From positions 9,087-73,086 of IMG/VR virus record IMGVR_UViG_3300025195_000023: a stretch of DNA of 64,000 bases. One strand, 5' to 3'. A program made the translations under genes and the position numbers. The notes under the pieces were generated by a model. That model was not told the origin of the DNA. It was given only the letters and a program-made list of their open reading frames with translations, and did no database searches. This stretch comes from a virus. Shown here piece after piece: positions 495 to 64,000 of this stretch (within the stretch, counting starts at the first letter, position 1; every line of letters starts with the position of its first letter).

Positions 495-3400
495 CTTTTT
501 ACCCCTAATACGGTTGCAAAAACATTTCTGCAGGCGGCACCACCGGCACTTCCCCTATATTGCACTTTTATACTAACCCCTGTATTTGGAAATGACAGTT
601 TGGTAGACGCACCGGCAGTAATGTATCCTGTGCCTAGTCTGGATCCACTTCCGCGAACAACACCGGCGACTACAAGTCGTAAATAACCGTTGCCATCCGC
701 CTCACCGTTAGTTCCGCCTTGCACTTCTCCGCCCCAAGTCACTAGTGCATCAATATTGCCAGTAGTTTCGGTATAATAAGTAAAAGATATTACATCGACC
801 CAACTAGTGGCACCTCCACGACTGCCGTCAGTTTGCGCCTGCAGCAGTGTTACGGCATTCCCCCTGATCTGCAGCGTATCGACGTAGGCATCCCCAGTGT
901 AGATCTTGGTGCCGTCAATCCAGGTGAAGCCGGGCTTTACCCAGTAGTCCGTCAGGGCAGACGACGCCCGGGAACTGCTACCAATGCTCGCCACATAGGG
1001 ATCGTCACCACCGCCACCAGACCCATACAGCTCCCATTCGTAGCCATGGTTGCCGGTATTTACTGAGTTTCCGTTCATCCACACCCGGACATAGCGGGCA
1101 AACTTGCCAATTGGTGTAATGGTTGGGAACTCATAGCCGACCTCGTAGCCGCCAGCGGCTGATCGAGACCAGACAAAACCCGTCGCATTGCCACCGTTGG
1201 TAGGGCCGGAACCAACAACATACTCCCAGGTGTTTCCATCCGTAGACACGGCAATGGCGTACTTGTATCTGCGCCCATCCAGGGCGTAGAAAAACATCCT
1301 GTTTTCGCTGACATATCGCTCAGAACCAAGGTCTGCCTGCAAGTACTGCACGCCGCCGGGTATACTCCAGTAGTCTGAAGAGATTGCCCTAACGCCGTCG
1401 CTTATGTAAGCCGCGTTGGTAATAGTCGCCGAGCTAGTGGTGGTAGCCCCCGAACGGATAAAGTTCCCGGACTTGTAGTTCTGGTACTTCGGCACCCCAC
1501 CAATCTGCACCGAATCCGCTATGTAACCAGTGTCCATTTCCACATGGCCGCGAAACGTTCCGTTGTTGGCTTCAATAGTACCGTCTGCCCCCAGCTTCCA
1601 GCCAGATTGTCCCGCAACAAAATTATCAGATTCTGCCTGTCGAGCAACGAGGTTATCCACGTCGATATAGTCAGCCTTGAGCTTCCCATTGTTTACAACC
1701 ACCGAGCCACTTTCATCACGGAGCTTGGAGAACGTCAACTCGTTAATAGCTGCCTGGTCAATGAATACCTCACTTCCCTCGATGATCAGGGGCAACTTAC
1801 CACCATCAATAGAGCCATCTGGCTGTAACTTACCGACCCAGAAACGGTCTACATCAAACCCAGCTTCTACGGACTGGCCTTGTGTGGCTAAACCAAACCC
1901 ACCGACATATTTCGTACCGTTACTGTCTGACTGTACCTTGACCGTGTACTGGCTGTTGAGGTTACCGATATCATCCTTATAGGCCCGCATACGCTGTTCC
2001 ACGTTGGCGGTCTCGTTATCCCCGTCAGTGATCTGGACACCCTTGACCACTTCAGCAATGGCATGCATATCGAGCCAGGTACCTGCTGCCGCCTCACAAG
2101 AGTCCTTTGTGGTCTTCGACCCATCCGGAGCCCCGTTAATCAAGCAGTAACCAATCTGTGCCTGTTTGAAGTCCTGTATTGCGGCAGACACCTGATTCCC
2201 GGTATACAGGTTGATGGGTTGCCAGGTTGCCCCATCCCATTGGTAGGGCTTGTCACCATCACCCTCATCGAGCCAGAGATCCCCTACCTTCGCTTCTGTC
2301 GGGGCGGAGGGTTGTCGACTAATCCGGGTCTTGTTCTGGTCACTGGCGAGCGCCCAGGACGCACCGTTCCAGAGATACAGCGTGTTACCTGAATCCGTAT
2401 CAATCCAGAGGTCACCGACGCCTTCAGCGGTCGGTGCTGTAGCCTGGTAGTACGTCGTAATTTTACCATCAGCCGTGGCCTGTGCGTCTTCTGCAGCAGC
2501 GATCGCCATGGCAATGGAGTTGTCCTGGATCAGTTTCCAGTTGGTGCCGTTCCAGCGGTACGCTTGATCGTTGTCCGTGTCGAACCAGAGATCCCCCAGG
2601 TCCGTGGTGTTATTCAGTCCAGTCGGGGCGGTAGCCTGGTAATAGGTCCGGATGGCGTTGTCAGCGACAGCCTGTGCCGCCTCCGCTGCACTCATTGCAT
2701 CGTTAGCCGCCTGTTGAGCTGTGACCAAATCCGAAGCCAGTTGGGAGATACGCTGATCTGTACCCAGTACCCAACCGGTTGTCTCACCTTGCCAGACGTA
2801 CAACTTGTTGTTGTCGTCTGTATCAAGCCACAGATCCCCGATGTTCTCCGGCAAGGCCGGGGGATTGGCCTGGAAGTACGTCCGGGTTTTTCGACCTACG
2901 CTGGCTTCCAGTGTCGTGATACTTTGAGCCATCGCACCATCCGCATTGGTTCGGGCCTTGCGTTCATCCTCGATGGCTGCAAAGGCTGCACCGATACCAC
3001 CGTCCTGAGCGTTCACCCAGTTCGTCCCATCCCATTGGTACAGGCGGTTATCCTCAGCGGTATTCACCCACAGGTCGTTTTCATTAACGATACGTACTGC
3101 CGGATCCGGGGGAACGTCACTCCGGAAAATCTGTGAGGTGGACGCCACCAGCGTCTGTACCTGCTGACTCAAGGCCTCGTCGGCATCGGCCCGGGCTTGG
3201 GACTCAGAGGTAATGGCCGCGGCATTGTCCGCTGAACTGGCTTCCACCGTAGTAATACGCGAAGCCAGTGCGGAATCTGCATCTGCCCGGGCTTTCTGTT
3301 CGGTCTGTACGTCTGCGGCATTATCCTGAACGGATGCACTGAGCGTGTCCAGACGCGAACTGAGTGCGGAATCTGCTGTTGTACGGGCCTGCTCTTCTGA

Positions 3401-16288: not shown

Positions 16289-19200
16289 TTACCGGAAGGG
16301 GCTGGTGGCCATTTGCATGGTCAACAGTTCATCCAATACCCCGGGGTAGCCAAAGGCACCCACGTCCAATGGATTGTTCCCGATCCGACCCAGGGCACTG
16401 GACTCCATTACCGTTGGTGCATCCAACAGGTAGGAGAAACCAAAGGCCGTCATCAGACCCCGTACCGGATGGTCACGCATCAGACGCCACAGAACACGTT
16501 GAATCCGCAGGTAGTACTTGGTGAAGAACACCAGACCCTTACGGTTCATATAGTCCAGGGCCCGATGTGAGGGCACGTCGTATACCACAAAGGCATCCCG
16601 AATTTCCCGCAGAGCGTCTTCTTTACTCATGGGGTTATTCTTCCGGGTAAGCAGATGCTGGTACAAAGTGTACCGAGCCACAAAGTCACTCATCTGGGTG
16701 GACTTGAACAAGGCCTTGTACAGCAGGGTGTCCTGGCTCATGTACATATACTTCCCGGCCGTCACCAAACCGCTGGGCAGGTTCTGGGCTTTCCCGTCTA
16801 CCCACTCAGCAATCCGGGACTTGTAGGAGAAGCCGTCATCCTCGGTATCAATATCCTCCATGATGGTCTGGAATTGTCCGGCATCCACCAGTTCAGTTAC
16901 CGGGTTGGTCGCCAAGGCATGCTGCAGTTCCAGGATATCCTGGTTCAGCTGATCCAGTGTCCCACTGTAAGTCTGAGAGTCCCTCAGGTTTTCCAGGCGA
17001 AGCAGTTCACGACGATCTCGCTGGTACCTCAGCAGACCATCAATTGCTACTGCATGATCCCGGGCACCTTTGATAGGGTTGACCCCATACCACAGCAAGA
17101 TGGACAGGTTACTCCGCACGTTACCCAGGAAGGTGAACAGGTTCTTGATCACAACAATATCCTTGATCTCGTTCACCAGCATGTCCCATACCCTACCAAT
17201 CTGCATACCCCGCAACGCAGTCTTATCCTTGAAGAAGAATTCCAGTACGCCGAAGGTCAGCTCTTCCATGAATCCCTGTTCTGCAGACTGCCAGGCTTCC
17301 GACAAGGAGTACTGACGGTACCCAAATACCAGATCCAGTACGTCGTTTCGGACCTTCAGACCGTTACGCCCCCATACATCGCGGATTGCCTGCTTGGTGG
17401 CTTCCGGCAGCATCTGATATGTCTCCCGGATACGCTTGTCTGGACTGTCCGGACCGAACTCCAGGTAACGGGAAGGGTTGTCCCGGTAATCCATGTCGTA
17501 GGTCTCTTTCAGGGCCTCAATCACATTACGGTTGTGTTCCGCTGAGGCAGGCTTGTCATAAATGGCAGACCCCATGGCACCGAGAACCGAATCAACCCGA
17601 GTGTCCCGTTCCAGGAACGCATCCTTATTGGCTTCGGTCATCAGATACCGGTAGTTCACAATCTCACCTTTACGGTTCACCACCGGAGCCAGTGCCACGT
17701 CTTCCCGGTTTGCCAGGTTACGGTTGAAGCCTGGCTTCTCCAGATCCAGTAGGCTCTTGGCCATACGGTTCGTGGTGTTTTGCGTCTTGATTGCCAGGGA
17801 CTGATTCACTTCCTCCGGCAACAGATCGGACATACCACCGTGAATTGCAGACCCTTTCCGACGCATCCCACTCATGGACAGGGCACCGGAGATCCACGGA
17901 GGCAGGCCACCATCCTTACGCACATAGATATGGCGTGTGGTCTGGTCAGGGGCTGCTGGATCTGCCGGTACCATCTCACCCCGAGCGTAGCCTGCTTTCT
18001 CAAGGGCAATCCCTTCGGCCCGTGTGGCTGCTTTCACATCTACATACGGACTGTAAATCTCCTTGATGTATCCCTTGGCAAACAGGTGCGGATCGTTATC
18101 AAACAATTCCACCATGGACTGGTCTTTGTATTTCTGGGCCATGCCCATTACAAACTTCACCCCTTCCGGCATCTCAGTCATCACCCTTGCCGTGATCCGA
18201 CGGGTATCCCCATCAGTGTCCTTCAGGGCATACAGGGTAACCAGTCGATCCAGAATAGCCTTGGACGGTTCCACGATGTTGTCCGGCACCTGGTGAGCAT
18301 CCGGCATCCCCACTTTATGGGCGATGTTGTGGACGTTCATCATCAGGTTACGTGAAGTACGTCCGGTGGCCATGAAGTGCCCTGTTGCCATGGCCTGGTT
18401 CACGTAGTACGCCTGGTGCTTGCCACTGACCTGAGCCAAGGAGGCCTCGGTTTCTTCAATGGCTCGCTGAAGGGCTGCATTATCACGAACCATGTCCGTG
18501 ATCTGCTCCTGGGTATACGTCTCAGCCAGGGCAACCAGGTCGGTCTTCAGTATGCCCTTGGTCAGTGCCTCACGTTCCGCCTCCGTGGCGTCAGGCAGCA
18601 TATCCCGTACCTGCTTGGCGGTGGTGTCCTTTCGGGTTTTCCGCTCGTTCTGGATCACACTGAAGTGATCCATCAGATCAAACAGTTTCTGGGTGGCCGG
18701 AATAGCTCCTCGGACTTCTGAGGCGATACCCAACATCAGATTCTGTCGCTTGGCACCATGACGGTTACGGAAGTTCTCCATATTGTCGAACAACGTATCC
18801 AGCTTATCCTGGGCCGCCATTGAGGTCACTTTGCCCGCAGCACGAATTGTCGCCACAGAGCTGTTCTGAACCATGGAACTCTCAGCCACCTTGGCCACTG
18901 TCTCACGGACAGTACCCCCGGCTTCACGCTGGGCGTTCTCAATCTGGTCGATCACCCCAATTCGTTCATTGGCCAGGCGCCCTTTCCGGGCACTCTCAAT
19001 GTCCACCAACTTGGTCACCAGACGTTCCAGCCTCTCTTGGGCATCCTGGTTACTGACCGTGCCGGAAAAGACATTGGTCAAGGCCTGGGTACCCGCGGTG
19101 AACCAGGACTGAATCTGGTCACCGAGCTTGTCAGTGGCCGCCGTGGTGTCGGCGTTGCCGTTATAGTTCAATGCCTTCTGTAGTGGCGGGTACACCAGAG

Positions 19201-22200
19201 CCATGGCAGCAAATCGGCTGATGTGATCGGAACGACTTTCACCACTCCCGGGCTCCAGAGTGAACAGGAACTTGTGTAGCTGCTCGGCAGCACGACGCTC
19301 AGTGTCCGAAACCAGGGCACCGTCACCGGCTATCAGATCCTCCGGTTTAACCTGGTCACGGGCCTGCTTAAACAGCCGAGCCAGGTCACGGTAGGCCAAG
19401 GTCGAGGTATCCAGAATGCCCTGGATCGTTACTTCAACCTGTTCCAGCACGAAGGCTTCTTTTTGCGACAGCTTCACGTTCTGTGCCTGGACCTTGGATA
19501 CGAACGGTGCCCGACCACTGGCCAGGGCATTAAGGAACACATCTTCCGGTGTCCGGCCTGCTTTCCTGTCCACCATGGCGTAAACACCACCATGCGGGCC
19601 ATGCACTGAGGTCACAACCGAATCCAGCAAGTTAGCCAAATGTCCCCGACTGTCCGTACCTTTCAGGGCCCGGAACACTTCTTCAGTGGTCATCCGGTCT
19701 GTTTCCTGTACAGGATCCGGGGCACTCTGCGTCAGGGTGCTTTCCATGGCTTTTGCTTGCTCAGCCTTGGAGGCCGCCAATAGGCCAGAAGTGTTGGCTA
19801 CCAACAGTTCGATACCGTTACGGCTTCCCCGGAACAGTCCCACGATGGCATCAATGAAGGCCTGCATACCTTTCACGGGCTTACGCTTGAGGTTCCGTGA
19901 CTTCATCTCAATCCGAGCCAGTACATCTTGTTGGAATTCCAGGTTGGTCATACCCCAGGACACCAACTCATTGATGTTACTGACGGCTTCACCGTACTTG
20001 GTCTTCAGGGCAGGACTGGCATCCACGTACTCCCGGGCTTGCTTGAGCAAAGCAGCCAACTCACTGACATACGGTGATACGGCCGGATTGTTGTGCTTCT
20101 TGTCTGCCTTCTTGGCAGCCAGTTCCCCATCAATGGTGGATTGCAGAACCGAGTGAAGCATCTCATGGGCCAGTAATTCCAGGTTCAGGTCGGACTCGAC
20201 AAAGTCCGGGCCCTTCACGTAGATGGTAGAGGCTCCATCTGCTTCCCGACGGAACAGACCCTTCACGTTGTGCGGGTTACGCAGCTTCGGTGCCAGGGAA
20301 ATCGGCGTCTCTGCAGTCACCATCTTGACCTTCAGATCCAGGTCCACATGCTTTTTCACTTCGGCCAGTACCGGACCCAGTAACTGACGACGACGGTCAT
20401 TCTTGGGAATGGTGGCCATGGCCTTACGCATGTGACCCAGCAACTCATTTACCGTCATCTCAGGCTGATTCTGGAAGGCATTAACCAGTACCTGGTTCTC
20501 CGGTGACAGGGTTTTCTCACTGTGTGTGATCGTACCCCAAGGGGTTTCCAGGCGGCCGTTATACGCACGGTTCAGGAAGTCCACCACACGGCGTGCGCCT
20601 CGCTCATCCTGCGTCGCTTCCCGGGCGGCAGTCATCAGCATATCCTGCTGGTTCAGAGGACCATGGGTACCGGTCTGCTTCTGCTGCTCAGCCACCAAAC
20701 GCCCCGTTGCCGCCAAGTCGTCCTTCAGGTCCTGCTCGATGTACTTGTTATCCTGAGCCACATCAATCAGATTCTGGATACGGGCAGGCGGTGCGTACCG
20801 AACGTCCCGGTGGCCAGCTTGTCTCCCTGCCAGATACCTGAACAGAATTTCCCGCATGTTATCCCGTTCGGCCTTGTTCTCCTGTCCCTTGTAGACACGA
20901 CCCAGTGCCTCATCCAGGGAGCCAGTAGTCACATAGACCTGATTCAGCAACCGAAGATCGCGGACGAACTTCTTGTTGTCCTCGGTGATGGGCTTACCCT
21001 GGTCGATCAGGGCCTTCAGGCGGGCTTCTGCGGTTTCGGAGTATCGACGCAAGGCATCAGCAGCCAAACCAGGCTGACGGGCTTTACGGCGGGCCTGGCG
21101 TTGACGGATACGTTCCGCGATGGGTGTCTCCCGACGAGCCACGATCTTTTCCCGGTCCTCTGTCGTCACTTCATAGTGGCCACCAGGATAGCCATACTGG
21201 TTCACAACGGATACGGTCTCCATCCAGTCCATAGCCCGGGAATCCATTTGCTGGGCTTTATCCAGCAGACCACCTACATGGGTACGCAGATCGCTGAAAC
21301 GGTACTTTTTCGTCAGAGCCTGGTAAGCCTTGCGGAATTCTGGATCCTGGTTCAATTCACCCAGTCGGGCCTCAAACCCATCCAGGGTTTCAAACAGGGA
21401 CTGCATGATCTCTTCCGGCAGGGAGTACTCGATCAGGGCGCGTACTGTTTCCTGGTTCATCCGGGAGGCCACTTCCATCAGCTGTTCTGGGGAGCCAATG
21501 GCCGCATCGTGGACGTTCAGGATATTGAACGTCTTGTACACCCGGGAAATGATGGCACTATCCATGGCGTGAATGGCCATGATCACCGACGCCACACCCG
21601 GATCCACTTCCTCAGATTCACCGATCCGGTATTTCCAGGAGGTCAACTGGTTAACCTTGTGGAATTTGGATTCCGGAACCAGTGACGCATTCAGATCACC
21701 CGGTGCCAGCGGAATCGGCCGGGCCATACCGACCTCACCGGTATTGCGCCACAGCTTCTCATCCGAGTGGACCTGTTTGGTCTTGGCCATACGGATACCG
21801 GCAGACTTGCGGCCGCCTTTGGACATGGCTGTATGGAGAATAGGCTGGATATCCTGTACCCGCTTCTGGATCTCCTGCTGCTGTTCCCGAGACAACGTCT
21901 GCAGATAGTTACCGTCAGGATCTCGAGCCAACAGGCCCTGGGCTTCCAGTTCAGCCAGGTATTTACGCTCTTCGTGGTCCCGAACCAGCTTGTACAGACC
22001 AAAGGTCAGACCGGCTGCAGAGTTCAGCGCCTTTCGGTCATCTATGAAGTCCTTGTACTGTTTTTCCAGCACGGTCCCCAGGTGCGTCCCTACGTGGTAC
22101 TCAAACGCCGCTACCAGGGCCTTACGCTGTTTGGGTGTGAAGGTGAAGTCACGCACATTCGCCGTCGTCAGTTTGAACTGCTTGATCTTCTGTGCGTTCG

Positions 22201-25200
22201 GCAAGAATCGGTTGATCTCTTTGAACAGTGCCTTAATGTCCTCCCGATTTTGCTCATTCATGGGTTTCTTCAGGGCAGCATCCAATTGGTCGTACACCTT
22301 GTCGACCAACTGCTCACCCATGGTGGCAATAGAGCCCTTCTCACCGGCACCGAACATCAGCTTGGTCAGCAGGTTCTTGACCGCATTCCGACCCTTGGAG
22401 GATACGCTGGTACCATCTTCGTTACGGAAGTTACCGAACATACGGAACATCAATTCCGTGAACTTACGGGTGTCTTCAGACGATTCACCGGCACGAATCA
22501 GTGTATCCGACAGGTCCCAACTCAAGGTCTGGTACAGGTCCTGTCCCCCCTTGGCCGCCCAGTCTCCGATGAATTCGTGTGCCTGCTCCGCGGTGAAGAA
22601 CCCGCCTTTGGCACCCCACTCAGCCACCAAGCCACCCAACTGACCCAGGGACAGCATAGGCCCATTGGTCTTGCCGTCACCTTCGCTGTGCAGCCGAGAG
22701 ATGAAGGTATCCCCTTCACCCAGGTCTTTCTGATACAGGTGCCACAAGGCATCGAAGCTCCAGCTGTCTTCATCCAGTACGGCAGCCAGTGCGTCCTCCT
22801 GTTCTGGTTCCAGGATGACACCGTTATCCAGCAACTTCAGAATACCAAGAGCCTCTTGGATATCCTCCCGGGCCACCAGTTCGTCGTAAGCCGCCACGGT
22901 ATCTTCCAGGCGTTGCTGGTCGATCTTGCCACCGAAGGCTTCCACCACAGAGACCTTGAACATCATGCCCTGCAAACCGGACAGGTCTTTGGGGACTTCC
23001 ATCTCCCATCCATCCATTTGCATGGCGATCCGGTGGAGTTTCTTCTCCTGCGGGTTAAACGTGGACGAGTCCAGGTGAACCCGTTGTTGACGGGCCACAA
23101 ACCGTTTGAAGTAGAAAGGCTTGGTCTTGTCTTGCCCCATGGACTGGACAAAGTCGAACATGGTGTCGATATGTCGACGCAGTCCGTCATTACGTCCTTC
23201 CAGAGTCTTCAGCAGGTTCTTCTGTGTGGTGTTGGGATCCAGTTCCTGAATGCCCTGTACCTTCTCCAACAGGCGACGGGACATCTTGTTGAGGATGCCT
23301 CGCTCCGGATCCAGCATGTCCTGACGCAGGTAGTGCTTCTGCTTCTGTGCCTCAGCCAACGTCTCCCGCTGTTCCTTGGGCGTATCCTGATTGGTTCTAC
23401 GGGTTTTCTTCGGAACATCAGAATCCTGTGGCTCCTCAAAAACCGGATCCTTCTTGATCTGCTCCACATCAAACAACTTGTGAACCACCGCCTGAGTGCC
23501 TTTGACCTTGTTCTCAAACGACGTCACCTGGGGATTGTCTTCCCAACCCATGGGTGTTTCGACACGGTTAGATCGGACAAAGTAGGTGATTGGGGCTGTC
23601 TTCTTTCCCTTGGGAATCGGAGCCAGATACTCAGCCTGTACACCGATAACCTGCACATAGCCCAAGTCCCGTAACGCACCCAGACCAAGGGCACCAAAAG
23701 CACCGGCTAACTGGCCTTCATGGTTTTGCGGAGCACTCTTATTCAGTTTCTGACCCAGGGCCTGTACAACCCGCTGGCCAATGTCGTTCATCACCAACTT
23801 GTCCCGGGTACCGGCGTCCCACAGATCGTCCCGAGCATCTGGCGGTACCGTCTCACCGTCCTCCAGACCCAGGATACTGCGAATGGCATCCTCGTCGTTG
23901 TACCACAGTTCACTGCCGTTCTCGGACAACCAGGTGAACATACCCACGGCAACGGCAGTACGGACGTTTTCCTCCATCTTGCCGTCTTCATCCATGAAGT
24001 AGTTCAGCATGTTTCGATGCTGGTAGCCTTTCTTCCGCTTGGTCAGCCCGTTGATGTGTTCGATCCACTTCGGCGCGAGTTCAGCAAAGTAGGCGATGGC
24101 CTCACGTTGCTTCTCCCGAATTTCGGGATCTTCAGACAGGGTGACACCCAGGGCCTCCGGGCTGTACTTGTTAGGAACCAACAGATTCGACACATAGTCC
24201 TTGTTGGCTGTCAGAGGCAGTCCTTTGCGCGTGGTGAAGTACGCCTCAGCCAGGTTCTCGGATTCGATGGCATCCTTACCCAAGGTACCGGAAACCTCAT
24301 CCTCCCGGGCGTTACGTCGGGCGTCGATATCCAGTACCGACTCCGGTGCGTTGATACCGTCACCTTTGGCTAGGACTGTGTCAGGCTCTCCAGAGTCATT
24401 TGTGCGTTCTTCAGTAGTTGCCTGTGTATCTCGGCCGGTATTGGTATCTCCCTGATCTCCGTCCCGAGCGACAGGATCGTTGGTGGATCCAGTTTCAGCC
24501 TCTGGTTCAGTAACTGGTTCCGGTGTTGCTGCCTCTGTCTCTGGTTCCGCTTCCGGTTGAGCTTCAGTCGTAGATTGGTTGGCTTCTTCCGCATACACAG
24601 GCTCCTGTTCGATTTCCTGCTCAATGGCCGCAGCGTTATCCGCCAGGGCATCCAGATCATCCACTGGGGCGGCATCGTTAGCCGCAGGACGTGGGGCGGT
24701 ACCAACAGCTTGGGCTGCTTGGAGTTCTTCCAAGGCAGCACCCAGCATCCGGGCTTCCATCTTCATCTTGGCCAGGGTGTCAGTCATCTTCCCTGGCTTG
24801 GCGTTGAAGTTCAGACCCCCATTTTCTTTCAGGGCTTTGTCATCCAATCGCTGACCGGTGTTGATCTCCCACCCCAGGTTCCCCTCGGCATCCTTGGTGG
24901 CGATCATCTGTACCTGACGACCAGACTCAATGGCCTGACGTTGGGCTTCCTCAGCCACCGCTGCCTTTTCATTGTGAGAGTTACTGAACCGCTCCAGGTC
25001 GGACAACAGGCGATTGGCATTGCGTTGATTACCGGTAACCACTGCACGTTGGATTGCCTGACGGTATTGCGGTAGAGATCGGAATCCCTGGCTAGGGTTA
25101 GTGGAGAGGATATCCAGGCTTACCTGGTCAAAATCCTTGGCTTCATCGTCCACTTGCTTACGCTCAGCCAACTTCCGCAGATAGGTACGTTGTTCCTGGG

Positions 25201-27394
25201 ACAGATCCAGAGATGTATCTTCTGCCAGACTGGCTGCTGTTGGTGCATCCAGAATATCCGGGTTTTCCATGGCATACGTCACAGCCTGTGAGGCAGCCTG
25301 TGAGCGTGCTTCTACATCGGCCGTCTCATCGGTCGCCTGCGACACAACATCACTGGCTCCGGCGTCCTGGGTGGCCTCCACGGAGGACTGCTGGCTTTCC
25401 TGACGAACCTCTTCCCGGTACTGCACCAAGCTCCGACGTAACGCTTCCCGGTCTTTCTTGTCCTGGCGGCTATCCTTCTTGGCAGTAGCCATTTCCTTGC
25501 GTAGCTCAGCGGCCCGGGTTCTTAGTGGTTCGATTCCTTCGAGGTTGTCGGACAGCTCACGTTCTTTGATCTGTCCTTCGATATTCTTCAGTTCCTCCTC
25601 GTTCTTGCGGAGCGTCTGAGGGGACATATTCTCGGTGAACTGATCCAGTGCCTGGATCTCAAAGTCCAAACGTTCATCAAGACGATCCAGTGCTTCACGC
25701 GCCTGCTGCTGGAATTCCGGTGCCACACCGCCCTGGGTGTTACGGGCCAAGGTAAGCACGGAGTTGGACAGGGCCTCTACATCAATGTCCGGGGTTTCAT
25801 CCGGATCCAGTAGCCGATCCATCTCACCATCACGGATCATGTCCGCAACCGAACGGTTAGCCTCCCTCTGTACCTCATCGTCTTTCTTGGCCTGGATCGC
25901 CTTGGCTTGCTTAGTTTTGGCACGAGTTTCAGCCACTTCACCGGCCGCACCGATACCTGTACCCACACCGGTACCGATCACCGCTCCGGTAAACACCTCT
26001 TCACCGTCGGCTTCATCCAGGGACGCCCAACCACTTTCCGCACCGGATTGCAGACCTTCGGTCACACCTTCACCGGCACCCTTGCCAGCAGTCCCGGTGG
26101 CCACACCCATGGCTTTACGAGCTATCGAACGTTCAGCCGCCTGAACAATGGCTGCCTCGGCAGCTTCCAGACCTTTGTTCCCGAAGCCCCGGATCAGAGA
26201 CGTATCCATGACGTAATCGGCAGAACCTGAGGCCAGGGCCACCGCCGTCATCAGGGTGTTCTCATCCTGAGTGGGTAGACGGCCTTCACGCTCTTTGAAG
26301 TCCGCAACACCGTTGCGATAGACCTCACTGGCATAGGACAGGTTGGTGGCTGCCAGCAAGGGTTTGAACATGGCACCACCGGCCAGCTCCGGTACGTTCT
26401 CGGACAGGTACTGTAGAACGGCCAGCTTGTTCTCGGACAGATCCAGGCCACCGTCTACCAGCAATTTACCGACAGCCAGGGCTCCAGTCTTCAGGGCACC
26501 GACAGTATCCCCGGAGTCCCACAACTCAGTGGCGGTATCCAGGCCTGCCTTGTTACGTTCCCAAGAGGCCTTCACGTCCTTGATCAACTCATCCCGTGTC
26601 AGTGGGTTGAGCTTACCCTCAACCTTGACAGCATCACTGACTTCCTGACCCTTTTCGAGGTTCTCCAAGGCTGAATCCAATAGTTCACGAGACGTCTTAC
26701 CGTCCACACGGGAACCAGGGGTATGTGTGGCCATATCCCGGTTGCTTACCGGGGTATCCAGGTAAGCCGCTTCGTCCTCGGTAATCGGTACCAGGGCCTG
26801 TTCCTGTTGATCCAGTGCCTTGAGCTGTGTGTCCCGGGTGTCTTTGTCGATCCGGCCCATGAGGTCCGCCACAGAGAGGCGTCGCTTCTGTTCCTGGATT
26901 TGCTCTTTCTGTTTGCGATACATAAGGTCACGGGAATAGATATCCCGGGCCCGATCATCGGTTTGCTCCAGACTACGACGGCCTTGCTCGGTAAAGGGCA
27001 TAGCTCCCAGCCGACCCAGGGCGGCACTACCACCCTCATACGCGGCCGCTGCGTTCTGCTTGGCTTCACCCCACAGAGACCCCAGTTCTAAATCATCGGC
27101 CAACGCCGTACTTTCACGGGCAGCTCGTTCCTGTTCGGCCGCGGAGTAATTCGCCGCCATGTCCTGAAACTGGCGATCCTGGAAGTGCTTCACAGCTTCC
27201 GGAGTTGTTGCTCCACCGTTTTCACGGTAGGCCTTGAAGGTGTCGTACTGTTGCCAGGGTTGAGCATCATTGGCAGCCTGTCGGCGTGCCAGTTCCTGTT
27301 TTTTACGTTCCGCAGCCTCAGCTACCTGGGCCTCCTTGGCCACAGGTGCGAAGCGTGCAATGGCTTGATCCAACATATCCAGACTGTTTGACAT
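16289..27394 (-). CDS. Virion-encapsidated RNA polymerase (N4 gp50-like vRNAP)
   Basis: 3701 aa; motif A EGDGKTNGP, motif B RNAVKNLLTKLMFG, motif C NVHDA; no Cys noticed on visual scan; last gene of the late cluster. Confidence 0.95.
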   Translation of the reverse strand: MSNSLDMLDQAIARFAPVAKEAQVAEAAERKKQELARRQAANDAQPWQQYDTFKAYRENGGATTPEAVKHFQDRQFQDMAANYSAAEQERAARESTALADDLELGSLWGEAKQNAAAAYEGGSAALGRLGAMPFTEQGRRSLEQTDDRARDIYSRDLMYRKQKEQIQEQKRRLSVADLMGRIDKDTRDTQLKALDQQEQALVPITEDEAAYLDTPVSNRDMATHTPGSRVDGKTSRELLDSALENLEKGQEVSDAVKVEGKLNPLTRDELIKDVKASWERNKAGLDTATELWDSGDTVGALKTGALAVGKLLVDGGLDLSENKLAVLQYLSENVPELAGGAMFKPLLAATNLSYASEVYRNGVADFKEREGRLPTQDENTLMTAVALASGSADYVMDTSLIRGFGNKGLEAAEAAIVQAAERSIARKAMGVATGTAGKGAGEGVTEGLQSGAESGWASLDEADGEEVFTGAVIGTGVGTGIGAAGEVAETRAKTKQAKAIQAKKDDEVQREANRSVADMIRDGEMDRLLDPDETPDIDVEALSNSVLTLARNTQGGVAPEFQQQAREALDRLDERLDFEIQALDQFTENMSPQTLRKNEEELKNIEGQIKERELSDNLEGIEPLRTRAAELRKEMATAKKDSRQDKKDREALRRSLVQYREEVRQESQQSSVEATQDAGASDVVSQATDETADVEARSQAASQAVTYAMENPDILDAPTAASLAEDTSLDLSQEQRTYLRKLAERKQVDDEAKDFDQVSLDILSTNPSQGFRSLPQYRQAIQRAVVTGNQRNANRLLSDLERFSNSHNEKAAVAEEAQRQAIESGRQVQMIATKDAEGNLGWEINTGQRLDDKALKENGGLNFNAKPGKMTDTLAKMKMEARMLGAALEELQAAQAVGTAPRPAANDAAPVDDLDALADNAAAIEQEIEQEPVYAEEANQSTTEAQPEAEPETEAATPEPVTEPEAETGSTNDPVARDGDQGDTNTGRDTQATTEERTNDSGEPDTVLAKGDGINAPESVLDIDARRNAREDEVSGTLGKDAIESENLAEAYFTTRKGLPLTANKDYVSNLLVPNKYSPEALGVTLSEDPEIREKQREAIAYFAELAPKWIEHINGLTKRKKGYQHRNMLNYFMDEDGKMEENVRTAVAVGMFTWLSENGSELWYNDEDAIRSILGLEDGETVPPDARDDLWDAGTRDKLVMNDIGQRVVQALGQKLNKSAPQNHEGQLAGAFGALGLGALRDLGYVQVIGVQAEYLAPIPKGKKTAPITYFVRSNRVETPMGWEDNPQVTSFENKVKGTQAVVHKLFDVEQIKKDPVFEEPQDSDVPKKTRRTNQDTPKEQRETLAEAQKQKHYLRQDMLDPERGILNKMSRRLLEKVQGIQELDPNTTQKNLLKTLEGRNDGLRRHIDTMFDFVQSMGQDKTKPFYFKRFVARQQRVHLDSSTFNPQEKKLHRIAMQMDGWEMEVPKDLSGLQGMMFKVSVVEAFGGKIDQQRLEDTVAAYDELVAREDIQEALGILKLLDNGVILEPEQEDALAAVLDEDSWSFDALWHLYQKDLGEGDTFISRLHSEGDGKTNGPMLSLGQLGGLVAEWGAKGGFFTAEQAHEFIGDWAAKGGQDLYQTLSWDLSDTLIRAGESSEDTRKFTELMFRMFGNFRNEDGTSVSSKGRNAVKNLLTKLMFGAGEKGSIATMGEQLVDKVYDQLDAALKKPMNEQNREDIKALFKEINRFLPNAQKIKQFKLTTANVRDFTFTPKQRKALVAAFEYHVGTHLGTVLEKQYKDFIDDRKALNSAAGLTFGLYKLVRDHEERKYLAELEAQGLLARDPDGNYLQTLSREQQQEIQKRVQDIQPILHTAMSKGGRKSAGIRMAKTKQVHSDEKLWRNTGEVGMARPIPLAPGDLNASLVPESKFHKVNQLTSWKYRIGESEEVDPGVASVIMAIHAMDSAIISRVYKTFNILNVHDAAIGSPEQLMEVASRMNQETVRALIEYSLPEEIMQSLFETLDGFEARLGELNQDPEFRKAYQALTKKYRFSDLRTHVGGLLDKAQQMDSRAMDWMETVSVVNQYGYPGGHYEVTTEDREKIVARRETPIAERIRQRQARRKARQPGLAADALRRYSETAEARLKALIDQGKPITEDNKKFVRDLRLLNQVYVTTGSLDEALGRVYKGQENKAERDNMREILFRYLAGRQAGHRDVRYAPPARIQNLIDVAQDNKYIEQDLKDDLAATGRLVAEQQKQTGTHGPLNQQDMLMTAAREATQDERGARRVVDFLNRAYNGRLETPWGTITHSEKTLSPENQVLVNAFQNQPEMTVNELLGHMRKAMATIPKNDRRRQLLGPVLAEVKKHVDLDLKVKMVTAETPISLAPKLRNPHNVKGLFRREADGASTIYVKGPDFVESDLNLELLAHEMLHSVLQSTIDGELAAKKADKKHNNPAVSPYVSELAALLKQAREYVDASPALKTKYGEAVSNINELVSWGMTNLEFQQDVLARIEMKSRNLKRKPVKGMQAFIDAIVGLFRGSRNGIELLVANTSGLLAASKAEQAKAMESTLTQSAPDPVQETDRMTTEEVFRALKGTDSRGHLANLLDSVVTSVHGPHGGVYAMVDRKAGRTPEDVFLNALASGRAPFVSKVQAQNVKLSQKEAFVLEQVEVTIQGILDTSTLAYRDLARLFKQARDQVKPEDLIAGDGALVSDTERRAAEQLHKFLFTLEPGSGESRSDHISRFAAMALVYPPLQKALNYNGNADTTAATDKLGDQIQSWFTAGTQALTNVFSGTVSNQDAQERLERLVTKLVDIESARKGRLANERIGVIDQIENAQREAGGTVRETVAKVAESSMVQNSSVATIRAAGKVTSMAAQDKLDTLFDNMENFRNRHGAKRQNLMLGIASEVRGAIPATQKLFDLMDHFSVIQNERKTRKDTTAKQVRDMLPDATEAEREALTKGILKTDLVALAETYTQEQITDMVRDNAALQRAIEETEASLAQVSGKHQAYYVNQAMATGHFMATGRTSRNLMMNVHNIAHKVGMPDAHQVPDNIVEPSKAILDRLVTLYALKDTDGDTRRITARVMTEMPEGVKFVMGMAQKYKDQSMVELFDNDPHLFAKGYIKEIYSPYVDVKAATRAEGIALEKAGYARGEMVPADPAAPDQTTRHIYVRKDGGLPPWISGALSMSGMRRKGSAIHGGMSDLLPEEVNQSLAIKTQNTTNRMAKSLLDLEKPGFNRNLANREDVALAPVVNRKGEIVNYRYLMTEANKDAFLERDTRVDSVLGAMGSAIYDKPASAEHNRNVIEALKETYDMDYRDNPSRYLEFGPDSPDKRIRETYQMLPEATKQAIRDVWGRNGLKVRNDVLDLVFGYRQYSLSEAWQSAEQGFMEELTFGVLEFFFKDKTALRGMQIGRVWDMLVNEIKDIVVIKNLFTFLGNVRSNLSILLWYGVNPIKGARDHAVAIDGLLRYQRDRRELLRLENLRDSQTYSGTLDQLNQDILELQHALATNPVTELVDAGQFQTIMEDIDTEDDGFSYKSRIAEWVDGKAQNLPSGLVTAGKYMYMSQDTLLYKALFKSTQMSDFVARYTLYQHLLTRKNNPMSKEDALREIRDAFVVYDVPSHRALDYMNRKGLVFFTKYYLRIQRVLWRLMRDHPVRGLMTAFGFSYLLDAPTVMESSALGRIGNNPLDVGAFGYPGVLDELLTMQMATSPFR

Positions 27395-59073: not shown

Positions 59074-59141
59074 TGTTCAACAGGGCCTATATGCTTTCCG
59101 TAAAATGACTCTCCAGTTATTACACGGTAAAGGACGCATAT

Positions 59142-59465
59142 ATGCCCTGGAAAACTGGCCCTGAAATCTGGGATATTGTTGGCGCCCTTATAGTCAGCAT
59201 CGTCTCCGCAGCAGTCTCAATCACCCGACGTATTGTGAACGGATATCCCGCTTCAATGCTTTGGGTGGTGTCGGAGTTTCTCGCGGCCATTCTGGCTGGG
59301 TACCTCATGTATTCCGTCTACCCACACATCGTGGATGACATCCCCAAGTGGTTCACCTTACCTGTGGCTGTTGCCTTTTCTGCTCATGTAGGTGGGCGAC
59401 TCTTTCAGGAGATGGAGAATGAACTCGTTAACCGCTACACCAACCTGTTCGACCGGAGACGCTGA
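59142..59465 (+). CDS. Putative holin
   Basis: 107 aa, three predicted TM segments, charged C-terminus (DRRR), AAGGA RBS. Confidence 0.6.
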   Translation: MPWKTGPEIWDIVGALIVSIVSAAVSITRRIVNGYPASMLWVVSEFLAAILAGYLMYSVYPHIVDDIPKWFTLPVAVAFSAHVGGRLFQEMENELVNRYTNLFDRRR

Positions 59466-59466
59466 T

Positions 59467-59637
59467 ATGACGTCTTCAGAACTCATGGCCGTTGCCCGGG
59501 CAGAACAGGATTGGCGTGACGGATTATCAGCAGATGAAAACCCCTTCCCGGTTGGCTCTGCTGAATACCGTCACTACCAGGATCACTTCGACCGCCTCAT
59601 GGTGGAAGAAGCGATACGCGACCAGTCCGCCGCGTAA
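59467..59637 (+). CDS. Small hypothetical protein (RMF/CrpP-like NPF motif)
   Basis: GGAG RBS; G.S..ENPFPVGS.EY..Y. Confidence 0.5.
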   Translation: MTSSELMAVARAEQDWRDGLSADENPFPVGSAEYRHYQDHFDRLMVEEAIRDQSAA

Positions 59638-59647
59638 AGCGGACATT

Positions 59648-59969
59648 CAATTAACCCTTCTGTGAAGGGAAGGGTTGATTGTTCCTCAAGATTGACCGGT
59701 GTTGGGTTCAAAGTCAGGACAAGCCCCTGGCCACCGGTCACCTATACAATCCATCGATGAAGGCACTGGATTGGGTCTTGCTTTGTATGCCCAAAGAGTG
59801 AAACGGATTATCACTTTTAGGATCCGCAAGATACCTAACTGGTCTGATCAACCGGGTAATGGTAACCAGGGTTAGTAGCCTGCAGTGTCTTCTTTGATGG
59901 GTTGTGCCCTCTCCTCCTCTCCCAAGGGGTTCCCCATAACCCCGACTCCACTGCCCACGGGGAGGGCAC
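59648..59969 (+). ncRNA. Candidate structured non-coding RNA(s)
   Basis: Four closely spaced folded domains, including a 156-nt multibranch structure; G-U pairs favour the + strand. Confidence 0.55.
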
Positions 59970-59999
59970 TCCCTCCTAGTCTGAACCAAGGAAAAACCA

Positions 60000-60179
60000 A
60001 TGAAAGATCCCGTCATTACTGTGGCCCTGAGCCGCAGTCAGATCATTGAGCTATTGGCCAACAGCAACATGGGCCCACACAGTACCAACACCTTGTTTGA
60101 AGCCCGGAAGATCCTGCGACGAGTGATCCGGGAATCGCTGGCCAGCAATGAAGTGCCAACCACAAAACGGAGGGCCTGA
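60000..60179 (+). CDS. 59-aa hypothetical protein
   Basis: AAGGA RBS; MKDPVITVALSRSQ...; below the track cutoff. Confidence 0.5.
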   Translation: MKDPVITVALSRSQIIELLANSNMGPHSTNTLFEARKILRRVIRESLASNEVPTTKRRA

Positions 60180-60315
60180 TGCCATACACCATGCAAATCC
60201 ATACCTGTGCCGCTGCCCAGTCCCTCCACCAACTCCAAACAGCCATCAAACGGCCCAATCAAAGGAAACACTCTATGAACCTGAATAATGCTGCCCTGCT
60301 GGAAACCAAGGAGTA

Positions 60316-60714
60316 ATGACCATGTCCAAGACGACAACACGGGATCGCCTCTACACTGCCGCCCTGTATTTACGGGCACATTGTGTCCAGCCACAAAAGG
60401 TGTCCATCAACGAGTTCACCAGGCAGTTCACGGTGTCCTCCAATACGGTAGCTGAGTTTATTGATGCCGGTCTGATCACGCGAGTAGGTAGGGCCCTCTA
60501 TGTACGGACAGATAAGCCAGTCACTCTGGCGGTGATTGACGAGATCCTGGCCAAGCGTCAGAACGGCTATATACCAAAGGTTCCAGAACTGTACGGTAAA
60601 CAGGCTTCGGCCAATGATTCCGCAACAGGCACCGTTACCTTGGCTCAGTACCAGGAACTGGAAAAACGGGTATCGGCCCTTGAACAACTTCTGATCCGGA
60701 AGGGTGCCGCATGA
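60316..60714 (+). CDS. Putative winged-helix DNA-binding protein
   Basis: AAGGAG RBS; SINEF...VSSNTV..F.DAGLI.RVGR..Y; coiled-coil tail. Confidence 0.55.
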   Translation: MTMSKTTTRDRLYTAALYLRAHCVQPQKVSINEFTRQFTVSSNTVAEFIDAGLITRVGRALYVRTDKPVTLAVIDEILAKRQNGYIPKVPELYGKQASANDSATGTVTLAQYQELEKRVSALEQLLIRKGAA

Positions 60715-61211
60715 CACGACGACTTTCCGCTGACACGATCCGCCACCGCTTGGTGCAGATCAACCCAGAGGAACTGGACGGCCGGTGTGACCAACGCTTC
60801 AAGCAGGTCTACCAACAGATCCAGGTGTCATGGAAGGACATTGTGAGTTACTACGCCGAGAACGGGTACACCTGGGAAGACGCCGCAAACCAGTTTGGGC
60901 TGAAGACCTTCACGCTCAAAGCCTACTGTAAGCGAGCAAACCTGTCCTTTCCCTGGCAAGGTCCCCGAGGCTGGAAGGCACGGAAACGCCAAAGCGAAAC
61001 CAAGAAAGGTATCCGACCTTCCGGAGGGATCATCCCCAAGGAATTCACCGTCTTCGGACGGACGGCACCCTTGAAAACCTTGATCGCGGAGTTCTCCCCA
61101 CCAGGGTTGACCTACGCATGTGTGTACCAACGTCTATCACGGAACTGGTCATTGGATAAGGCACTGACCTACCCCAAAGGCTGTCCACTGATCCTGACCC
61201 AGGCGGCATGA
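60711..61211 (+). CDS. Putative DNA-binding protein (HTH plus HNH-associated-like C-terminus)
   Basis: GYTWEDAANQFGLK..TL; LTYACVYQRLSRNWSLDKALT. Confidence 0.55.
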   Translation: MTRRLSADTIRHRLVQINPEELDGRCDQRFKQVYQQIQVSWKDIVSYYAENGYTWEDAANQFGLKTFTLKAYCKRANLSFPWQGPRGWKARKRQSETKKGIRPSGGIIPKEFTVFGRTAPLKTLIAEFSPPGLTYACVYQRLSRNWSLDKALTYPKGCPLILTQAA

Positions 61212-62057: not shown

Positions 62058-62383
62058 TGGCTGTAGATAGCGAAACTTATATGGCGGTTTGTGGTGAGGT
62101 TCAGGATTTGCGACGGCAGCTTGCCAAGAGTGAGGCACGAGTGGCGGAGCTTGAGGCTGACAACGAACATCAGCGAGAGCGCCGGAACGCGGCTCGGGAG
62201 TGCATTAAGAAAATGGGTGATGGCAGCCCTTGGCTCCTCCGCAAGCAGGCCGAGGCGGTAGAAAAATCAGCCCTCTTATTTCCGGGGCGTGAGCTAACCG
62301 ACATTCGGTGCTCGTTACACACAGAAGCCCAACGCCTGAGACAACAAGCCGAGCGCCCACAACCACCACAGGAGGGCGAGTAA
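62057..62383 (+). CDS. Ead/Ea22-like coiled-coil protein
   Basis: AKSEARVAELEA; KQAEAVE...EAQRLRQQA. Confidence 0.55.
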   Translation: MAVDSETYMAVCGEVQDLRRQLAKSEARVAELEADNEHQRERRNAARECIKKMGDGSPWLLRKQAEAVEKSALLFPGRELTDIRCSLHTEAQRLRQQAERPQPPQEGE

Positions 62384-62385
62384 CC

Positions 62386-62766
62386 ATGTACTGGTTCCTG
62401 ACCCTGGCTTTGCTCCTTCTGGTGGACACCTACCTGTTCACCAAGGGGTACGACACGTTTTTCTTTTCCCACAAGACCCAAGCTGAAAAGCAGATTCAAC
62501 AGAGGATAATCATGAGCAAGCAACTCAACCCTGAATTGATCAACCCCCGCTACGTTCAGATCAAGCGTAAACAAGCTGCTGAGATCCTGGGCGTATCCCC
62601 GGCAACCTTTGACCGTATGCGGAAGGACGATCCAGACTGCCCCAAGGGCTTTACCCGGAATGACTCCAAGATCGCTCAGGTGTATTTCCGCCTGTCCGAT
62701 ATCTATACCTACAGCGAACAGCTCATGAATCGCTCTCAGCCCGCCTCAGAGGCCACGAACGGTTAA
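62386..62766 (+). CDS. AlpA/excisionase-like HTH protein (internal start 62512; in-frame upstream TM peptide from 62386)
   Basis: IKRKQAAEILGVSPATFDRMRKDDPDCPKG...VYFRLSDI; convergent with the integrase. Confidence 0.75.
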   Translation: MYWFLTLALLLLVDTYLFTKGYDTFFFSHKTQAEKQIQQRIIMSKQLNPELINPRYVQIKRKQAAEILGVSPATFDRMRKDDPDCPKGFTRNDSKIAQVYFRLSDIYTYSEQLMNRSQPASEATNG

Positions 62767-62767
62767 C

Positions 62768-64000
62768 CTACCCATTGCCCTGGACTAATCCGATTACAGG
62801 GTCCTCCGGCTTGCTGGTGCCCTTCTCCAGCGCTTCCAGGTAATCCGCATACCACTGCATCATGGCTCGCCTTTGTTCCAGATACTGGGCCTTGTTGTAT
62901 ACCCCCGCCATACCGTCCTCGACGTGAGCCAACTGGGCTTCTACCCAGTCCTTGGGCCAACCATGCTCCCGTAGCAGGGTACTGGCCGTATGACGGAAAC
63001 CGTGGCCCACAATCCTACCCTCGTAGCCAACCTGTACGATCACCTTCTTGATCGCATTCTCGCTCAGGGTAGGATTCTTTGAGCCATAGCCCGGGAAGAC
63101 ATATCGACCTGCCCCGGTGTACGGTTGCAGGGCTTTCAGCTCCTGTACCGTTTGGGATGCCAGGGGAACCGTGTGTTCCCTTCGCATCTTCATCTTCTCT
63201 GCACGGATGACCCAGAGACCTTTATCCAGATCCAGTTCTGTCCATTCCGCAAATCGGGCCATGCCCGGGCGACTGGCAGTACGCAGAGCCAACCAAACCA
63301 TGGTTTCGGTGACCTGCCGTACCTTCGCTTCTCGAATAGCTTTCAGGAATCCCGGAAGGTCAGGCTCCAACAGATGTGGATAGTGGTTTCGTGTAAAACG
63401 ATCCACCGCAACATGCTTCAGCTCACTGGCTGGATTGTGTTCGGTCTTACCCTCGGCAATGGCCAGGGAGAATATCTGGTTGATCCAGCCCCGGAGCTTA
63501 CCTGCCATTACATGGGCACCTCGATCCTCCATAGATTGCTGGATCGTCGTACAATCCAAGCGTGTGACTTCTTCCAGTGTCTTGTTACCCAGCCGGGGCA
63601 ACACTTCTTTGTCCAGGTACATTCTCATCTGACGTGTTGTGCCAGGGGCCCGACCGGATTTCAGTTTTCGCTGATACCAGTGTTCCGCTGCATCCATGAA
63701 CAGGATCTTGGGAACCTCCGGAGCGGTATTGAGTTCCTCCCCATCGGAGACTTTCTTCAACAGTTCCCGGGCTTTTTCCCGTGCCGCTTTACCGGACACT
63801 GCCGGATAGCCACCGATCCCTTTCCAGGCCCACTTACCGTTGGGCCGTTTGTAACGCACCACCCAGGATTTACTGCCACCGGCCTTGACCCGAAAATACA
63901 ATCCAGGACTGTCATTCTCCTGATAGTCCCGTTCCTCGGGTTCCAGCTTCTCCAACACACTGTCCGCCATCGGACGGCGCTTAATCTGTGAGCGTTTCAT
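62768..64000 (-). CDS. int: Tyrosine integrase, P4 family with N-terminal arm-binding domain
   Basis: GLYFRV...GSKSW..RY arm domain; catalytic R (TASRPG), K (KMKMRREH.VPL), HGFR, LAH, VYNKAQY all present. Confidence 0.95.
   Translation of the reverse strand: MKRSQIKRRPMADSVLEKLEPEERDYQENDSPGLYFRVKAGGSKSWVVRYKRPNGKWAWKGIGGYPAVSGKAAREKARELLKKVSDGEELNTAPEVPKILFMDAAEHWYQRKLKSGRAPGTTRQMRMYLDKEVLPRLGNKTLEEVTRLDCTTIQQSMEDRGAHVMAGKLRGWINQIFSLAIAEGKTEHNPASELKHVAVDRFTRNHYPHLLEPDLPGFLKAIREAKVRQVTETMVWLALRTASRPGMARFAEWTELDLDKGLWVIRAEKMKMRREHTVPLASQTVQELKALQPYTGAGRYVFPGYGSKNPTLSENAIKKVIVQVGYEGRIVGHGFRHTASTLLREHGWPKDWVEAQLAHVEDGMAGVYNKAQYLEQRRAMMQWYADYLEALEKGTSKPEDPVIGLVQGNG

Follow-up and report, generated by a model that had tools for sequence, protein, structure and literature searches.

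The 362-nt gap at positions 59638-59999 of a 64-kb stretch of viral DNA, between a 56-aa gene and a 59-aa gene, very probably holds a conserved RNA structure on its + strand. This stretch, referred to as the window, comprises 64,000 nucleotides of the 73-kb provirus record IMGVR_UViG_3300025195_000023. Comparison with related loci indicates that the RNA is modular: a fixed core, made of a hairpin (HP1), a single-stranded linker and a second stem (P2), is combined at a fixed genomic position with long-stem frames whose interiors are exchangeable. On the same comparative grounds, the locus appears to represent an uncatalogued, lineage-restricted RNA family of marine integrase-bearing N4-like phages. 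Because G-U pairs are in excess, the stems covary and the folding score is strand-specific, the sequences point to selection on the + strand at the RNA level. We tentatively favor the reading that the locus is an array of structured RNAs that are transcribed together and set free by stem cleavage, probably with an accessory or counter-defence role.

Folding and covariation of the RNA

When the gap was folded with RNAfold, the + strand reached -135.3 kcal/mol, compared with -116.1 ± 6.3 kcal/mol for shuffled sequences (z -3.03), and one of 100 shuffles equalled it. The - strand gave a z-score of -0.42 and was equalled by 28 of 100 shuffles. The minimum free energy (MFE) structure of the gap includes HP1, P2, a long closing stem and a fourth hairpin. 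An earlier first-pass annotation, made by hand-folding, had proposed four structured elements here and suggested the z-score as a check. All four were recovered at the proposed positions: HP1 at 59648-59681, P2 with an inner hairpin at 59713-59731, the closing stem at 59747-59768/59883-59904, and a hairpin at 59905-59969.

Related loci were gathered by means of the neighboring holin gene, using homologues of 47-64% identity. A protein search with this holin gave two related viral contigs, L002 and L003. In L003, 441 nt are free of genes; this stretch has blocks in common with the window, and its folding z-score is -4.88 on the + strand vs -2.22 on the - strand. A pattern derived from the shared block returned 13 stretches in one metagenome-contig scan, and judged by their flanks eight of these were true homologues (L005, L007, L011-L015 and L017) and five were chance matches. 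As for pattern scans of viral contigs, one returned the L003 contig only and the other gave four stretches, three of them chance. A six-sequence holin alignment retrieved 13 viral loci; the RNA was present in one new locus (L029) and absent from ten. A covariance model of the core (R1), whose seed did not include L029, found L029 at 70.9 bits (E 5.6e-18); with this model the window gave a single copy, and L002 and L030-L039 gave no match. Among 185,579 species genomes the RNA pattern matched five stretches, whose flanks marked every one as a chance match; the holin alignment scan of genome contigs and a blastn search of the gap against 50,697 phage records gave no match. The homologues fall into about six lineages, all syntenic: the window; L003/L017; L005/L012/L013/L014; L011/L007; L015; and L029. 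The sequence of the window was also found, unaltered, in several DNA runs of marine metagenomes; the four runs compared contained identical copies with no variants within the RNA.

A coding role of the gap was rejected. As the first-pass annotation had stated, no credible open reading frame (ORF) exists there, the + strand ORFs being at most 58 aa long, and the core lengths of homologues differ by non-multiples of 3 (105, 135, 121 and 119 nt). By reading of the sequences, a Shine-Dalgarno-like start past HP1 opens different frames in L003 and L005.

The strongest covariation was found in the closing stem of the long-stem module of the window, which we call alpha (59747-59904). Its 5' strand (59747..59768, +, base CAAUCCAUC) pairs with a 3' strand (59883..59904, +) that ends in GAUGGGUUG, with pair probabilities of 0.94-1.0 except at one U-U mismatch; the 22 modelled pairs consist of 18 Watson-Crick, 3 G-U and 1 U-U. 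We aligned 13 modules of nine types with MAFFT, blind to structure, and counted these 22 pairs; alignments with MAFFT misalignment (one middle part, and the 3' part of L029 in another) were kept out of the counts. In total 92.0% of the 286 cells could pair, a level that none of 500 shuffles of the 3' letters reached (73.1 ± 1.4%), although with few, related sequences and several near-identical contigs such shuffle statistics overstate independence and are no probabilities. Both sides had changed in 16 of the 22 pairs, and pairing was 35-50% when the partner was slid by 1-3 columns. With one row per module type (198 cells), 163 cells were Watson-Crick, 22 G-U, 3 A-C and 10 other. The excess of G-U over A-C indicates that the folded strand is the + strand and that the level is RNA, which bears out the earlier observation that stem mismatches here are mainly G-U on that strand. 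The closing stem of about 20 bp proposed by hand is thus upheld as a conserved helix of about 21 bp. At its base the sequence itself is kept, GAUGGG being found in eight of nine module types with CCAUC or CUAUC as its partner (YYAUC/GAUGGG).

Inverted repeats with conserved termini, with interiors swapped between phages and a location in a hot spot of gene turnover, would also fit a DNA-level element, such as a replication origin, a single-stranded recombination site or a miniature inverted-repeat mobile element, or else a functionless palindrome-rich remnant. We consider this highly improbable, as the mismatch spectrum just described is strand-specific, the folding z-scores favor the + strand, the upper stems covary without any common repeat consensus, and the terminators downstream are co-oriented. 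Moreover, the element is single-copy in the window, where the stem-end pattern gave one exact match plus its own complement and model R1 gave one.

The core starts with the lead motif AUUCAA (59645..59650, +), which precedes HP1 in all nine listed homologues (without one A in L011). Across the locus family its fuller form before HP1 is CCCAUCAUUCAAY, and a variant, (U)UCAAY, is also found 5' of the long-stem modules. The motif was rejected as a repeated promoter, as its exact copy occurs once in the window and five matches with up to two mismatches were found vs 4.97 expected. HP1 (59648..59681, +) is a hairpin of 13-15 bp with the base CAAY/RUUG; its loop reads UGUGAA in the window and GUAGGA in most relatives. 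It is followed by the single-stranded linker CUCAAGAU (59685..59692, +), in which UCAAGAU is invariant in two alignments and whose form across the locus family is UCUCAAGAU. In P2 (59693..59740, +), the outer stem (59693-59701/59732-59740) is formed by GACCGG(C/UG) and (G/CA)CCGGUC and encloses an insert of variable length, 10-43 nt in the relatives. Both HP1 and P2 are in the MFE structure. Compensatory changes, a check that the first-pass annotation had also suggested, were found at four of seven modelled pairs of HP1 and two of seven of the P2 outer stem, in both cases in an alignment fitted to the model. The inner hairpin of P2, AAAGUCAGG-loop-CCUGGC at 59710-59731 with a conserved U-G wobble, is invariant at 6/6 pairs in 9/9 rows with letters, which indicates a sequence constraint and is neutral as to pairing. 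ACCUA and a few further bases lie between P2 and the following long-stem module. In L013 (- strand), one of the near-identical contigs, an adjacent GG to AA change in the 5' strand of P2 breaks two outer-stem pairs; the copy may be decaying, or the change may stem from assembly or sequencing.

Long-stem frames, their interiors and tails

The order of the locus is a 56-aa gene, zero to two upstream modules, HP1, linker, P2, a long-stem module, a tail and a terminator. Each locus holds one to three modules, with stems of 20-26 bp that covary above the base and interiors of 60-135 nt. The window represents the minimal form, consisting of the core, module alpha and a tail, with no upstream module. 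The frames of alpha and of the gamma module (L011, L007) are nearly the same helix, but they enclose unrelated interiors of 114 vs about 112-135 nt. Conversely, one interior RNA of about 95 nt, epsilon/zeta, is shared by L003:3484-3602, L017:1634-1763, L005 (- strand) 2122-2249, L014:1782-1908 and L029:4263-4390. Its own helices covary, with compensatory changes at 12 of 40 pairs, and its loops are conserved; the window does not contain it, and no match to it was found in Rfam. Its position is 5' of HP1 in L003, L005, L014 and L017, and 3' of two inserted genes in L029. That the same frame carries different cargo (alpha vs gamma), and the same cargo (epsilon/zeta) stands at different places, speaks for the reading of the modules as processing frames with cargoes.

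The two inserted genes of L029 (3281-4236, +) lie between the core and the module, and by reading their N-termini carry a transmembrane-like segment and a lipoprotein-type signal; from these features they may be lysis (spanin-like) genes beside the holin. Because they part P2 from the module, core and module can occur as separate units in a single gene string. L015 has three modules in a tandem row. The core model also gave a second, weak match in this contig (409-490, +; 23.4 bits, E 2e-4), which ends in its own terminator and lies between two long-stem modules, so L015 may contain two transcription units of this RNA type.

The 114-nt alpha cargo (59769..59882, +) has two near-isoenergetic folds. 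The first-pass annotation had drawn this region as a 156-nt three-way junction, of which the closing stem stands and the inner arms are tentative, no homologue of this interior having been found for comparison. Arm 1 with its inner hairpin is the alternative fold, at -57.6 vs -58.7 kcal/mol for the MFE (1.1 kcal/mol costlier, pair probability about 0.26); arm 2 forms at most six of nine pairs in any gapless register and is in neither fold.

The tail of the window (59905..59969, +) is the fourth hairpin of the first-pass annotation. Here the CU-rich GUGCCCUCUCC... pairs with GGGGAGGGCAC, enclosing a GGGGUU/AACCCC hairpin. The structure is in the MFE as proposed, whereas as a hairpin it is window-specific and its CU-rich 5' element alone recurs in relatives. 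The tails of L007, L011, L015 and L029 begin with GCGUCUUC.. and finish in a hairpin and a U-run, and a terminator of this hairpin-plus-U-run kind follows the RNA island in 9/9 relatives with a complete 3' end. At the junctions after upstream modules, GAUGGG is followed after 4-5 nt by CCCAUC in 5/5 cases (L003, L005, L011 and L015), an arrangement absent from the window; the resulting 6-bp GAUGGG/CCCAUC hairpin could compete with the base of the long stem, a possible switch.

The gamma interior alone contains two hairpins that resemble tRNA T-arms (GGUUCGA; L011 and L007). The available excerpts of PMC4201824 describe Y RNAs of bacteria and phages that contain tRNA-like domains, and the general shape of a long terminal stem with a variable interior, together with T-arm-like hairpins in some interiors, is shared with YrlA as portrayed there. 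This would suggest a Y-RNA-like scaffold, in which the long stem binds Ro60/Rsr and the interior tethers an effector. Membership in that class is largely refuted and now scarcely credible. The 73-kb provirus gave no match to a TROVE gene (PF05731), a search in which 2 of 14 control genomes were positive, and the motif GNCGAAN0-1G, as given in those excerpts, is absent from the gap and from 13/13 modules. The window has no T-loop-like motif, ARAGORN returned nothing from it, and D- and T-arms of the Y RNA kind were not found; no Rfam model of the class matched. Also, the gamma T-arm abuts the closing stem in the manner of an acceptor stem, unlike the YrlA layout in the same excerpts.

Within the island of L011 (about 670 nt), a candidate abiF-motif RNA (RF03085), a motif absent from the window, was noted at 1681-1742 (+) with 35.0 bits, the gathering score being 37 (E 1.5e-4 for the 686 nt scanned). 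Every conserved consensus position of the motif is matched. Such RNAs usually lie upstream of an abiF/Abi_2 gene, and no gene of that size was found in the 3.3 kb of L011 sequence covered. This RNA may be a phage-borne antitoxin mimic. According to the abstract of bioRxiv 10.1101/2025.04.15.648962, abiF-motif RNA neutralizes the AbiF toxin like a type III antitoxin.

Known families were otherwise silent. Rfam 15 gave no match at gathering score in the whole window, and at E<=10 four chance-level matches in 59400-60200 (E 0.87-7, 13-19 bits vs gathering scores of 55-71), consistent with the first-pass annotation, which had not recognized the family; the abiF motif of L011 was the sole near-match across the homologue loci. 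The element was not found described in a narrow literature search that covered non-coding RNAs of N4-like phages, Y RNAs or tRNA-like RNAs of phages, and lysogeny in Schitoviridae. A phage structured RNA with helices like processing stems is a known kind; what we did not find described is the exchange of RNA cargo within a frame that is itself conserved and stands next to a conserved core. Resemblances to hammerhead, integron attC, CsrA sponge and anticodon loop were dropped by reading.

Source phage and neighboring genes

The hallmarks of N4-like phages in the window include a virion RNA polymerase of 3701 aa (16289-27394, -), a portal of SU10 type, a T7-like RNA polymerase that is split, and a DNA polymerase of family A. 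The portal shares 58% identity with its counterparts in cultured Schitoviridae. A tyrosine integrase gene (62768-64000, -) stands at the window end, next to an excisionase-like gene (62308-62766). Since both genes are present, the provirus is temperate, although as an N4-like (Schitoviridae-type) phage it belongs to a group that was for a long time regarded as strictly lytic. As far as the available part of PMC10654107 goes, temperate Schitoviridae have been recognized only recently, integrase-bearing N4-like genomes, many of them marine, have been reported, and non-coding RNA is not discussed, the term 'non-coding' occurring 0 times. The provirus record has neither tRNA nor host flank.

Upstream, the RNA locus is anchored by a 107-aa holin-family gene (59142..59465, +; phrog_6854, E 1.6e-34). 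It is followed by the conserved 56-aa gene (59467..59637, +), directly past whose stop codon the RNA starts; tblastn placed its homologues immediately 5' of the RNA in L003, L005, L011, L012, L013, L014 and L017, and it had no match in Pfam or PHROG. The 59-aa gene (60000..60179, +) is the usual first conserved gene 3' of the RNA locus, with homologues in L003, L005, L007, L011, L012, L013, L014 and L002 by tblastn and in L029 by reading. The gene next to the island on its 3' side differs among relatives and may be an Rnl2 ligase gene, the 59-aa gene, a member of an 85-110-aa family or the two membrane/lipoprotein-like genes.

The Rnl2-type RNA ligase gene (T4 type; PF09414 and PF18043) at L003:3917-4846 (+) comes straight after the island terminator. 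It is also present 3' of the island in L005, L012 and L013, which are near-identical in DNA, and is absent from the window. The 85-110-aa family fills the slot after or in place of the island at L002:3572-3829, L015:907-1167 and L011:2293-2562 and 2572-2904, the last two being tandem copies. Its members share an N-terminal PRYWYY-like motif and a central PhGTQ motif and match nothing in Pfam or PHROG. For a 132-aa downstream protein of the window no viral relatives were found.

With an integrase and an excisionase-like gene at hand, and the RNA lying upstream on the same strand, a regulatory RNA of lysis and lysogeny has to be weighed. The first-pass annotation had suggested an immunity or attenuation RNA by analogy to P4 CI or P1 C4, which are small structured RNAs of temperate phages processed from a longer transcript, or an antitermination element. 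The forms considered here are an immunity or antisense RNA of that type and a put-like antitermination RNA that would control read-through toward the genes leading to xis. The terminator after the RNA in relatives makes read-through control conceivable, and the GAUGGG/CCCAUC alternative pairing could serve as a switch; both, however, are missing from the window. No C4- or CI-type model of Rfam scored, and complementarity of the gap to the rest of the 64-kb window was at chance (best 13 nt, E 0.28), in a search that short seed pairings would escape. Unlike P4 CI or P1 C4, the RNA is much larger and modular. Antitermination found no positive support. The proposed tie to xis revealed nothing functional: the gene after the RNA varies, about 2.3 kb with some six genes separate the RNA from the excisionase-like gene, and in 9/9 relatives with a complete 3' end the terminator parts the RNA from the genes beyond. 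Finally, provirus L002 has int and a xis-like gene and no RNA. Such a regulatory role is therefore improbable.

Processing of the locus and its possible role

In the reading that we tentatively favor, namely release of structured RNAs by stem cleavage, the locus would share a transcript with the genes on its 5' side. The promoter scan of the gap and of the region before it was empty, and for this reason we assume that transcription starts further upstream. The near-perfect two-turn helices would act as processing stems for an RNase III-like nuclease that is specific for double strands. Cutting would free the enclosed cargoes as stable small RNAs, while the core would remain as a structured 3' end or as a protein-binding platform. 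The cargoes would be accessory RNAs, probably acting in counter-defence or as decoys. A decoy role, which had been among the suggestions of the first-pass annotation, is compatible with the data and can be regarded as part of this reading.

RNase III processing stems flank stable RNAs, as in rRNA precursors, and RNase III also has intercistronic sites in T7 early mRNA; stems of 20-26 bp suffice for the enzyme. The alpha stem is such a helix of at least about 20 bp formed by the flanks of an RNA segment. Like those stems, the frames are near-perfect helices of about two turns within a longer transcript, and like the T7 sites they lie between the cistrons of a phage operon, some with a single internal mismatch. 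They differ in having a conserved base (YYAUC/GAUGGG, with UCAAY before it) and exchangeable non-coding interiors, and in being stacked in tandem beside a core that is not a stem.

The main rival is a purely cis-acting mRNA element, in which the stems are signals for intercistronic or 3'-end processing and for stability of the holin transcript and the interiors have no function. It agrees with the position of the element, which closes a conserved gene pair ahead of a terminator, with the L029 core and module flanking two protein genes within one gene string, and with stems long enough for RNase III. Pairing of the tail may also tune translation of the next gene, since by reading the CU-rich tail is able to form base pairs with GGAG in the following ribosome-binding site in L007, L011 and L029; in the window, however, the ribosome-binding site 3' of the RNA is free in the MFE. 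For a signal of this kind structure would suffice, yet sequence is also conserved in loops, in linkers and in the inner stem of P2. Also, the epsilon/zeta interior has its own covarying fold and conserved loops, up to three modules stand in tandem (L015), and cargoes of 60-135 nt would be superfluous for such a role. We thus consider the purely cis-acting reading possible, though on balance unlikely.

Several points weigh against release of cargoes by cleavage. Because the alpha cargo is an orphan, with no homologue among the relatives and no recognizable motif, the cargo idea rests on the relatives and not on the window. No complete tRNA mimic was found around the gamma T-arm-like hairpins (ARAGORN none; best tRNA-clan match 16.8 bits, E 1.9), and the abiF-like motif of L011 lies outside any long-stem frame and just below the Rfam cut-off. 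The RNA is dispensable, because L002, a close relative with int and a xis-like gene, has an 85-aa ORF in the slot and lacks the RNA. The lineages are few (about six), which adds to the limited independence of the sequences noted above, and the core DNA (75-83% identical between window and relatives) is only moderately better conserved than its coding flank, the adjacent holin gene (62-71%). The window tail has no U-run and hence no evident terminator, unlike the relatives. Lastly, the scan was negative for sigma-70-like sites in 59107-61000 and for terminator-like sites in the gap, phage-polymerase promoters being outside its reach.

The same empty scan led us to reject a promoter-terminator cassette of the PeSL type. 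In T4-type phages, as described in the available parts of PMC2839356 and PMC4122927, PeSL cassettes have a repeated conserved stem-loop bordering exchangeable units in a hyperplastic region. A conserved stem-loop motif at the borders of exchangeable units is what the present locus shares with them. However, PeSLs as described there flank protein genes and include a promoter, while here the arms pair around an RNA interior, no promoter was detected and selection appears to act on RNA pairing.

With regard to defence, phage phiTE carries pseudo-ToxI, an RNA mimic of a defence RNA, according to the accessible portion of PMC3475682. The L011 abiF-like RNA resembles this mimic and the abiF-motif antitoxin RNA RCd22 (bioRxiv 10.1101/2025.04.15.648962, likewise in part) in being a small structured phage RNA without a cognate toxin gene. 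It differs from them, as far as these sources go, in occurring in one relative only, below the cut-off and outside a frame, and the cargo of the window matches nothing.

A more far-reaching and rather unlikely proposal is that of an 'RNA cassette array', in which a fixed frame (UCAAY-YYAUC...GAUGGG-UUG stems) presents and releases interchangeable cargoes as an RNA-level counter-defence island. If this were true, the cargoes would include tRNA-arm mimics, a nearby abiF-antitoxin mimic and the epsilon/zeta RNA, beside RNA-repair genes such as Rnl2, and the frames would be the joints at which phages swap cargoes.

Known phage RNAs with defined structure are few, and N4-like (Schitoviridae) phages have contributed hardly any. 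The locus described here appears to be a well-supported new RNA family, in which a conserved helical frame surrounds RNAs that are exchanged, and one and the same interior can stand at different positions. If the frames are processing signals, the locus would correspond, at the RNA level, to the hot spots in which phages keep cassettes of anti-defence genes, and it would point to new decoy RNAs. Even under the cis-acting reading, it documents how these phages punctuate their long transcripts.

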